From assembly GCF_054482525.1 (NCBI RefSeq), contig NZ_CM137006.1: a stretch of 64,000 nucleotides of DNA. One strand, written 5' to 3'. Below the pieces are notes generated by a model. That model was not told the DNA's origin, did not search any database, and worked only from the letters and a program-made list of their open reading frames with translations. Within the stretch, counting starts at the first letter, position 1. Each line of letters starts with the position of its first letter. The position numbers were made by a program, and so were the translations under genes. Below are positions 51,411 to 51,791 of this stretch, piece by piece.

Positions 51411-51791
51411 TTACTTTTTCGTTTCGGATGTTGGATAAACAGCCAGATAAACGTAACCACAGCTGCCGAGGGTGTCGGCTTCGCAGGTCAGCCCTTTCGC
51501 ATACAGTGTGACGGTATGCTGATGGCGGGGATTCAGTTCACCGCCGGTGAGCATGAGTTCCAGTTGTTTCATCAGCAGCGGAAAGGCCTGGTCCAGGTGG
51601 TACGCATCCGCGTCGCTGAACAGGCCTCTGATACCGGCGCGGTCGGCAAGGTAATGCAACCGGTTACCCTCCTGCACCAGACGTGCCCCGAAACAGGGCG
51701 TCACGGTGCAGGGTAGCCCCCCACCAGGGGCGGTTGTTGTTGTCGGGATGCGTTGTCCCGGGGAGTGTGTCTGACACGATAAAATCCTCAC
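51411..51791 (-). CDS. cbeA: CbeA/YeeU-family antitoxin; N-terminal coding region shows a frame discontinuity at a G6 tract
   Basis: C-terminal 100 aa ([32 protein letters not shown]...YPTSETKK) typical of YeeU. The canonical-looking N-terminus ([21 protein letters not shown] from GTG 51777) is in the +1 frame and joins only at the C6/G6 run 51717-51722. The track ORF from GTG 51791 gives a non-canonical N-terminus. Confidence 0.6.

Follow-up and report, generated by a model that had tools for sequence, protein, structure and literature searches.

The type IV antitoxin gene cbeA in the 64,000-nucleotide stretch of DNA analyzed here (contig NZ_CM137006.1 of RefSeq assembly GCF_054482525.1; hereafter, the window) carries a one-base insertion that extends a run of five G residues (G5) to six (G6). 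The mutation is heritable, derived and rare among cbeA alleles, and it is quite probable that this inherited change has made cbeA a pseudogene, through ordinary decay within a CP4-44-like island in which the unpaired toxin is tolerated. On this account, a single base would have been inserted in codon 20/21 of the antitoxin gene of the island, once or very few times and by slippage at a short homopolymer, and would have spread thereafter by vertical inheritance and by recombination between related islands, acting as neither a recoding signal nor a phase-variable switch. Ribosomes loading at GTG 51777, the start served by a Shine-Dalgarno (SD) element, would terminate after 37 codons, so that normal CbeA would not be made, and we infer that antitoxin activity has been lost.

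A one-base insertion breaks the reading frame of cbeA

The disrupted cbeA (yeeU) gene occupies positions 51411-51777 of the minus strand, with 367 nt against 366 nt in the intact allele, and its frame is shifted by +1 at a G6 homopolymer (51717-51722, minus strand; C6 on the plus strand), the site of the inserted base, where intact alleles have G5. The frame of the canonical start (51664-51777, minus strand) comprises 37 codons, of which the first 20 specify the N-terminal residues of the intact protein (P0001) unchanged and the remaining 17 are out of frame, and it ends at a TAA codon (51664-51666). Its GTG is served by the SD sequence GAGGA at 51785-51789 on the same strand (-6.0 kcal/mol with the 16S tail, spacing of 6 nt). 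The conserved C-terminal part of the antitoxin lies instead in the frame of a 126-aa ORF (51411-51791, minus strand) that opens with a GTG devoid of any SD. Residues 25-121 of this ORF correspond to positions 4-100 of the 101 in the Pfam model of the CbeA_antitoxin domain (PF06154, E 4.6e-52) and, from residue ~20-25 on, it matches the solved structures of YeeU (PDB 2H28, E 3.5e-64), of its Shigella homologue (2INW) and of YfjZ (2JN7 and 2EA9). The family assignment rests on Pfam and PDB, since NCBIfam assigned no family to the 126-aa ORF or the repaired CbeA, nor to CbtA, YeeT or the fragment of YeeW. Antitoxins of this family are further characterized by an ability to neutralize CbtA and to bundle polymers of MreB and FtsZ. 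An AlphaFold2 model of the repaired CbeA, built on an 11-sequence alignment, was poor (mean pLDDT of 48) and was not used for judging which elements are lost.

No uninterrupted frame therefore runs from the conserved, SD-served start through the CbeA domain, in line with the label 'frameshifted' given by PGAP. A preliminary description of the window had reported this same discontinuity at the G6 tract, with the canonical N-terminus encoded from GTG 51777 and the conserved C-terminal part in another frame, and its coordinates are correct. Its statement that five G residues would keep both frames in register is likewise borne out by nine public loci (nine of the nine fetched) that carry G5 in an otherwise identical cbeA and encode an uninterrupted CbeA of 121 aa.

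The toxin gene and its island

The disrupted antitoxin gene lies directly upstream of, and co-oriented with, a gene of the CbtA toxin family, cbtA (yeeV; 50947-51321, minus strand), the start of which is located 89 nt downstream on the same strand. As had been proposed from the window alone, the toxin gene is intact: it encodes a protein of 124 aa (P0016, found exactly on 224 contigs) that is identical to the toxin encoded beside the intact G5 allele, and the CbtA_toxin model of Pfam (PF06755) matches a product identical to it. The toxin of the window keeps F65, as does K-12 CbtA, and binding to FtsZ depends on this residue (PMC5624674). Position 15 holds Cys, shared with YpjF and YkfI, instead of the Arg of K-12 CbtA. 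A residue resembling R15C was considered as a mark of toxin inactivation and rejected, since YpjF and YkfI naturally carry Cys15 and are both toxic (PMC5624674). Given its identity to the G5-linked toxin, the retention of F65 and the natural occurrence of Cys15 in toxic paralogs, the toxin beside G6 shows, as far as its sequence can tell, no sign of being dead.

The surrounding genes follow a CP4-44-like order (Ag43, DUF905, DUF932, antirestriction, RadC, DUF987 or YeeT, CbeA, CbtA, DUF5983 or YeeW, DUF957 and DUF4942). In particular, the window and the CP4-44 CbtA/CbeA (YeeV/YeeU) locus of E. coli K-12 share the order yeeS(radC)-yeeT-cbeA-cbtA-yeeW with the same spacing, and K-12 CbeA is 92% identical to the repaired CbeA of the window. 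The two differ in that K-12 cbeA has G5 and a whole frame, where that of the window has G6 and a broken one, and in that yeeW carries a nonsense codon in the window, unlike in K-12; in addition, the CbeA of the window has an N-terminal tail of the HPDNNN variety, shorter by one residue than the K-12 tail. By domain content, gene order and identity, the locus can hence be classed as a CP4-44-type CbtA/CbeA module, but it lacks the one feature on which a functional antitoxin gene depends, an uninterrupted frame. Immediately upstream of cbeA, the yeeT-like DUF987 gene (51857-52078, minus strand) is intact. The yeeW-like DUF5983 gene (50465-50950, minus strand), by contrast, is a second pseudogene in the same operon: a change of TGG to TGA, the last base of which is 50612 (A here, G where the 161-aa gene is intact), creates a stop codon at 50612-50614 and leaves 112 aa instead of 161, and PGAP flags the gene with 'internal stop' in identical loci.

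A scan of the gene strand for sigma-70 sites between 50900 and 52700 found no promoter-like site, and no tRNA gene was found across the whole 64-kb window. The island is bordered by an ORF for an IS4-type transposase (window 47363-48709, plus strand) and, in matching RefSeq records, also by an IS110 remnant. Capsule export and biosynthesis genes of the kps type adjoin it (38615-46604, minus strand), as does a long run of co-oriented plus-strand ORFs (15317-24789) that may, from its position, be a type II secretion (gsp) cluster. In a G6 locus of another genome (L007:3384-3650), a deletion has cut the toxin gene short as well, leaving 88 aa fused to unrelated sequence and followed by a gene with SIS and CBS domains, and the module would therefore be completely dead in that genome.

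Distribution of the G6 allele

A 601-nt query around the site is matched at 100% in seven complete RefSeq E. coli genomes, and an eighth, 20A24, has the same G6 in a cbeA gene with three substitutions. When 5,426 complete E. coli genomes were searched with a 63-nt probe, G6 was found exactly in 8 records and G5, in the same context, in 298. In the commonest context, in which the tract is followed by CTG, as in K-12, and not by CTA, as in the window, 3,107 records have an exact G5 and no record has G6, a result which argues that the tract is neither prone to assembly error nor a mutational hotspot. Taken over all tract-bearing genomes, the frequency of G6 is 8 in about 4,150, and at least ~300 further assemblies beyond the complete genomes also carry the allele. 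The genome from which the window derives is a further strain, with strain AH50 as its best match (99.7% identity over 24 kb).

In the three genomes in which its annotation was inspected, the identical locus is a pseudogene according to PGAP, which names it 'type IV toxin-antitoxin system YeeU family antitoxin' and adds 'frameshifted' (NBY12_RS18855 in NZ_CP098223.1, ACETQM_RS04225 in NZ_CP169755.1 and WAZ56_RS01520 in NZ_CP147044.1); these annotated carriers comprise a dog isolate from Korea, a poultry isolate from China and a wastewater isolate from Japan. Their frameshifted cbeA pseudogenes are the same allele as that of the window, with the same G6 and no difference at the locus. As RefSeq annotation lists the frameshift already, it is not new.

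Gene callers render the G6 allele as truncated products of two lengths, found on 108 (P0031, 97 aa) and 44 (P0032, 82 aa) contigs with one version of the island (type A), and a second version (type B) yields truncated products of its own in 136 (P0034) and 26 (P0035) blocks. All 22 of the fetched loci with such truncated calls have G6, and they come from many laboratories, submitters, assemblers and pipelines (NCBI, ENA, Logan). G6 was found, in particular, in 10 of 10 fetched P0031 loci and in 6 of 6 fetched type B loci (P0034 or P0035) and, besides these 16, in three RefSeq loci and in the window. Alignment with the cbeA alleles of other genomes, a comparison that the preliminary description had suggested, thus reveals a recurrent G6 allele alongside its G5 progenitor.

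Origin of the insertion

The exactly repaired protein, P0001 (121 aa), exists on 6-12 contigs. Because there are loci identical to the disrupted one except for G5, the G6 form is a derived one-base insertion (G5 to G6). Across 21 type A loci, in a table of single nucleotide polymorphisms (SNPs) covering about 3 kb, G6 is perfectly linked to C at position 49805, ~1.9 kb away, where all G5 loci have T. The yeeW nonsense mutation (50612) is present in all type A G6 loci and in one subgroup of G5 loci, which further carries a private 2-bp deletion (50785-50786); another G5 subgroup has an intact yeeW. Since the nonsense mutation is common to the G6 loci and to one G5 subgroup, it would predate the cbeA frameshift, and the parsimonious order of events leads from an intact island to the yeeW nonsense mutation and then to the frameshift in cbeA. 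The G6 loci are found in at least five left-flank contexts (the full island and the citF/citX, DUF554, IS and YagK/YfjJ junctions), so the allele would in turn predate several rearrangements. With a surviving G5 progenitor and a frameshifted pseudogene annotated by PGAP in identical loci, the evidence most favors inactivation next to an intact toxin among the four explanations that the preliminary description had left unranked.

The type B island (loci L003 and L023-L028) has a CbtA of 125 aa, an intact DUF5983 gene of 162 aa and flanks diverged by about 4%, yet 100% identity in the cbeA core; its version of the antitoxin ends in TPETKK and that of type A in TSETKK. At least 160 blocks of the collection have G6 in this background. 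The repaired G5 protein of type B was found only once, in a locus (L036) that combines type A upstream sequence with a different toxin of 125 aa, of type B. The complete identity of the cbeA core within flanks that are about 4% diverged suggests that cbeA has passed between islands by recombination or gene conversion, with a separate second G6 insertion in type B as a formally possible alternative.

As to the cause of the insertion, templated mutation at a quasi-palindrome (CCCC-TGGT-GGGGG) was considered and rejected, since both the G5 to G6 change and a C4 to C3 change found in another allele (locus L030, see below) reduce the symmetry of the arms. Simple slippage appears to be the simpler account.

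Translation of the disrupted gene

The strength of SD pairing was computed, as duplex energy with the 16S tail, for four candidate starts, all of them on the minus strand. The canonical GTG 51777 yields the energy and spacing given above, and GTG 51791 has no SD (+0.3 kcal/mol). An internal, in-frame GTG (51702-51704), which would initiate the 97-aa product P0031, yields -9.3 kcal/mol at a spacing of 11 nt, its sole SD-like element being the G run itself. The strongest pairing (-10.8 kcal/mol, spacing of 7 nt) is that of an internal, in-frame TTG (51657-51659) preceded by AGGAGG at 51668-51673, from which the 82-aa product P0032 would arise. The codon at the position of GTG 51791 is GTA in K-12 and, together with the SD energies, this suggests that initiation should take place mostly at the canonical start and yield the 37-residue peptide. 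Neither this N-terminal peptide nor the 126-aa product is found in a collection of 15 billion proteins, and gene callers never called them.

A strong mRNA hairpin predicted in cbeA (51671-51712, minus strand; arms CCCUGCACC...GGUGCAGG) begins 4 nt past the G run, with a minimum free energy of -42.1 kcal/mol and a z score of -3.5 against shuffled sequences, and its predicted pairing covers GTG 51704 and part of the internal AGGAGG. The sequence of the hairpin is the same in G5 loci and nearly invariant across thousands of cbeA copies and, being identical in G5 alleles, it would be no adaptation to the frameshift.

One observation against a pseudogene is that nearly the whole domain (Pfam positions 4-100 of 101) is still an open frame, identical in hundreds of genomes, and some N-terminally altered antitoxin could still be made from it. 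It is conceivable, if unlikely, that a working antitoxin arises by alternative initiation in the C-terminal frame, as a protein of 126 aa with a new 24-residue head (GTG 51791), of 97 aa (GTG 51704) or of 82 aa (TTG 51659). The ~20 N-terminal residues of CbeA that the frameshift separates from the rest lie outside the domain and are missing from the solved YfjZ chains, where residue 25 of the ORF finds its counterpart in residue 7. Gene callers routinely predict the products of 97 aa and 82 aa, and the C-terminal frame is open in every G6 locus examined. The last point, however, carries little weight, because the near-identical G6 alleles have had little time to decay. Each of the starts, moreover, meets with objections of its own. 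An antitoxin initiated at GTG 51791, as the preliminary description had envisaged, is unsupported in view of the lack of an SD, the GTA codon of K-12 and the absence of the product from the protein collection. The only SD-like element of GTG 51704 is 11 nt off, and the predicted hairpin would occlude this start and part of AGGAGG alike. TTG 51659 is a candidate site for termination-reinitiation, as it lies 4 nt past the TAA codon at which the canonical frame ends, and reinitiation there is mechanistically plausible; its product, however, would begin some 20 residues into the domain, without a segment that is among the most conserved of the family (mostly invariant or nearly so in alignment A2). 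Under the pseudogene reading, residual function may persist through an internal start or through rare slippage. The early stop at codon 38 might also have a polar effect that reduces the expression of cbtA.

Tolerance of the unpaired toxin

An orphaned toxin would be tolerated because CbtA-family toxins have low native expression, because type IV antitoxins can be deleted without growth defect and because paralogous antitoxins encoded elsewhere would neutralize it in trans. We infer these reasons from what has been reported for K-12, in which the loss of all three antitoxin genes (cbeA, yafW and yfjZ) is without effect on growth, toxin and antitoxin transcripts are low, the operon is autoregulated by neither protein, and CbeA, YafW and YfjZ each neutralize all three toxins (Wen et al. 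2017, PMC5371832). By megablast, most G6 carriers have two to five cbeA-like places per genome. At the same sensitivity, no second cbeA-like locus was found in carrier Z0117EC0005, so protection in trans may not extend to every carrier.

Within its allele family, G6 is far commoner than the intact progenitor, with about 150 occurrences against about 10 in type A and about 160 against one in type B. This excess is most simply attributed to clonal sampling and recombination, and it fits neutrality, but it could alternatively mean that the allele is not a simple loss. In the latter case, G6 would be a selected state and not the outcome of neutral decay: losing or lowering the antitoxin while keeping the toxin could be advantageous, for instance through the raised early biofilm formation that follows antitoxin deletion, while slippage on the run (+1 or -2) or reinitiation at TTG 51659 might still yield traces of antitoxin. 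The argument for selection draws on an excess over the progenitor of roughly 15:1 or more, on the presence of G6 in two island backgrounds and on the complete identity of the cbeA core, and we accord it a low probability.

Recoding, sequencing error and phase variation

Recoding could restore full-length CbeA by a +1 slip of tRNA-Gly on GGG_G, by a -2 slip within G6 (adding one extra Gly) or by RNA polymerase slippage to G5 transcripts, perhaps as a programmed means of keeping antitoxin levels low, and the preliminary description had included slippage-dependent expression among its alternatives. The zero frame and the target frame are both open over the whole of their overlap (51664-51791), GGG_G lets the tRNA re-pair perfectly whether it slips by +1 or by -2, and the predicted hairpin follows closely on the run. 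In this respect the site resembles the +1 site of prfB (release factor 2), where a shift with perfect re-pairing of the P-site tRNA restores the frame, yet it differs from prfB in lacking a stop or hungry codon in the A site and a correctly spaced upstream SD-like element, and in not being conserved among orthologs. Stimulation of -1 frameshifting involves a downstream structure 5-9 nt away, and that of +1 frameshifting an upstream SD-like element and a slow A-site codon. Here, the A-site codon after GGG is GCU, neither a stop nor rare, no SD-like element is found 3 nt upstream, and the hairpin, present equally in G5 alleles, starts at +9 from the P-site GGG, 2 nt past the A-site codon, nearer than the classical geometry requires. 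Transcriptional slippage is known to be efficient in E. coli at runs of about 8-9 or more A or T, and a run of six G is shorter than these. Moreover, the scarcity of G6 among tract-bearing genomes (8 of about 4,150, and none against 3,107 records in the main context) and the existence of an intact G5 form of the same allele argue against recoding, and an Rfam search of 49000-54500 at a permissive threshold found nothing at the tract, its two sub-threshold matches lying far away. Spontaneous slippage may occur at a fraction of a percent, but a programmed mechanism is not supported, and we deem it very improbable that full-length CbeA is restored by recoding.

That the extra G is a sequencing or assembly error in a gene that is really intact, as the preliminary description had also contemplated, would be in keeping with the frequency of homopolymer indels as artifacts and with the many annotated pseudogenes that are assembly errors (Cooley & Wright 2024, PMC11017572), but it is effectively refuted, and as a reading extremely improbable, in view of the eight complete genomes and the 22 of 22 fetched truncated-call loci from many submitters and pipelines, of the perfect linkage of G6 to a SNP about 1.9 kb away and of its absence against 3,107 G5 records in the commonest context. 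It is equally hard to credit that the G tract is a phase-variable contingency switch, with frequent on-off changes in the state of the antitoxin, for, although G5 and G6 forms of the same allele both exist in nature and the lone type B G5 form (L036) joins type A upstream sequence to a type B toxin, each flanking haplotype among the 21 type A loci has a single tract length, none of the fetched loci has G4 or G7, exact G6 is again absent from the main context, and the mixed combinations are accounted for by recombination, as attested by mosaic flanks. Known contingency loci switch efficiently only at tracts longer than 5-6 bases. The locus shares with the contingency genes of Neisseria and Haemophilus a G/C homopolymer indel that switches the frame in the 5' part of the coding sequence, and differs from them in that its tract has only 5-6 bases, under the length for efficient switching, is fixed within haplotypes and is invariant among close relatives.

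Significance and other disruptions of cbeA

The pseudogenization of cbeA proposed here has little significance beyond annotation. It does illustrate that population evidence alone can tell a homopolymer frameshift from a sequencing error, here through the linkage of G6 to a haplotype and its failure to turn up among thousands of copies of the tract. It also offers a natural case of a type IV toxin whose neighboring antitoxin is dead, in agreement with published work in which these antitoxins proved dispensable and interchangeable. If the frameshifted allele were truly selected or still expressed, it would bear on the tuning of stoichiometry in type IV toxin-antitoxin systems; nothing in these data requires it.

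Other cbeA alleles are disrupted in the same region. A different allele, found on 16 contigs (L030:585-600), has a frameshift of its own, from C4 to C3 in a CGCCCC run just upstream of an unchanged G5, and the product predicted for it by gene callers has 101 aa. In a K-12-like allele in JGI samples (L031-L034), four different inactivating mutations cluster in some 60 nt at the N-terminal end of cbeA, where two distinct TGG codons have changed to TAG, one TGG has become TGA and a C run has suffered a deletion, all of them beside a truncated CbtA of 87 aa; these samples are probably derivatives of one laboratory strain, and possibly mutator or evolved lines. Given these independent N-terminal disruptions, the loss of cbeA would seem to be recurrent and evidently harmless.
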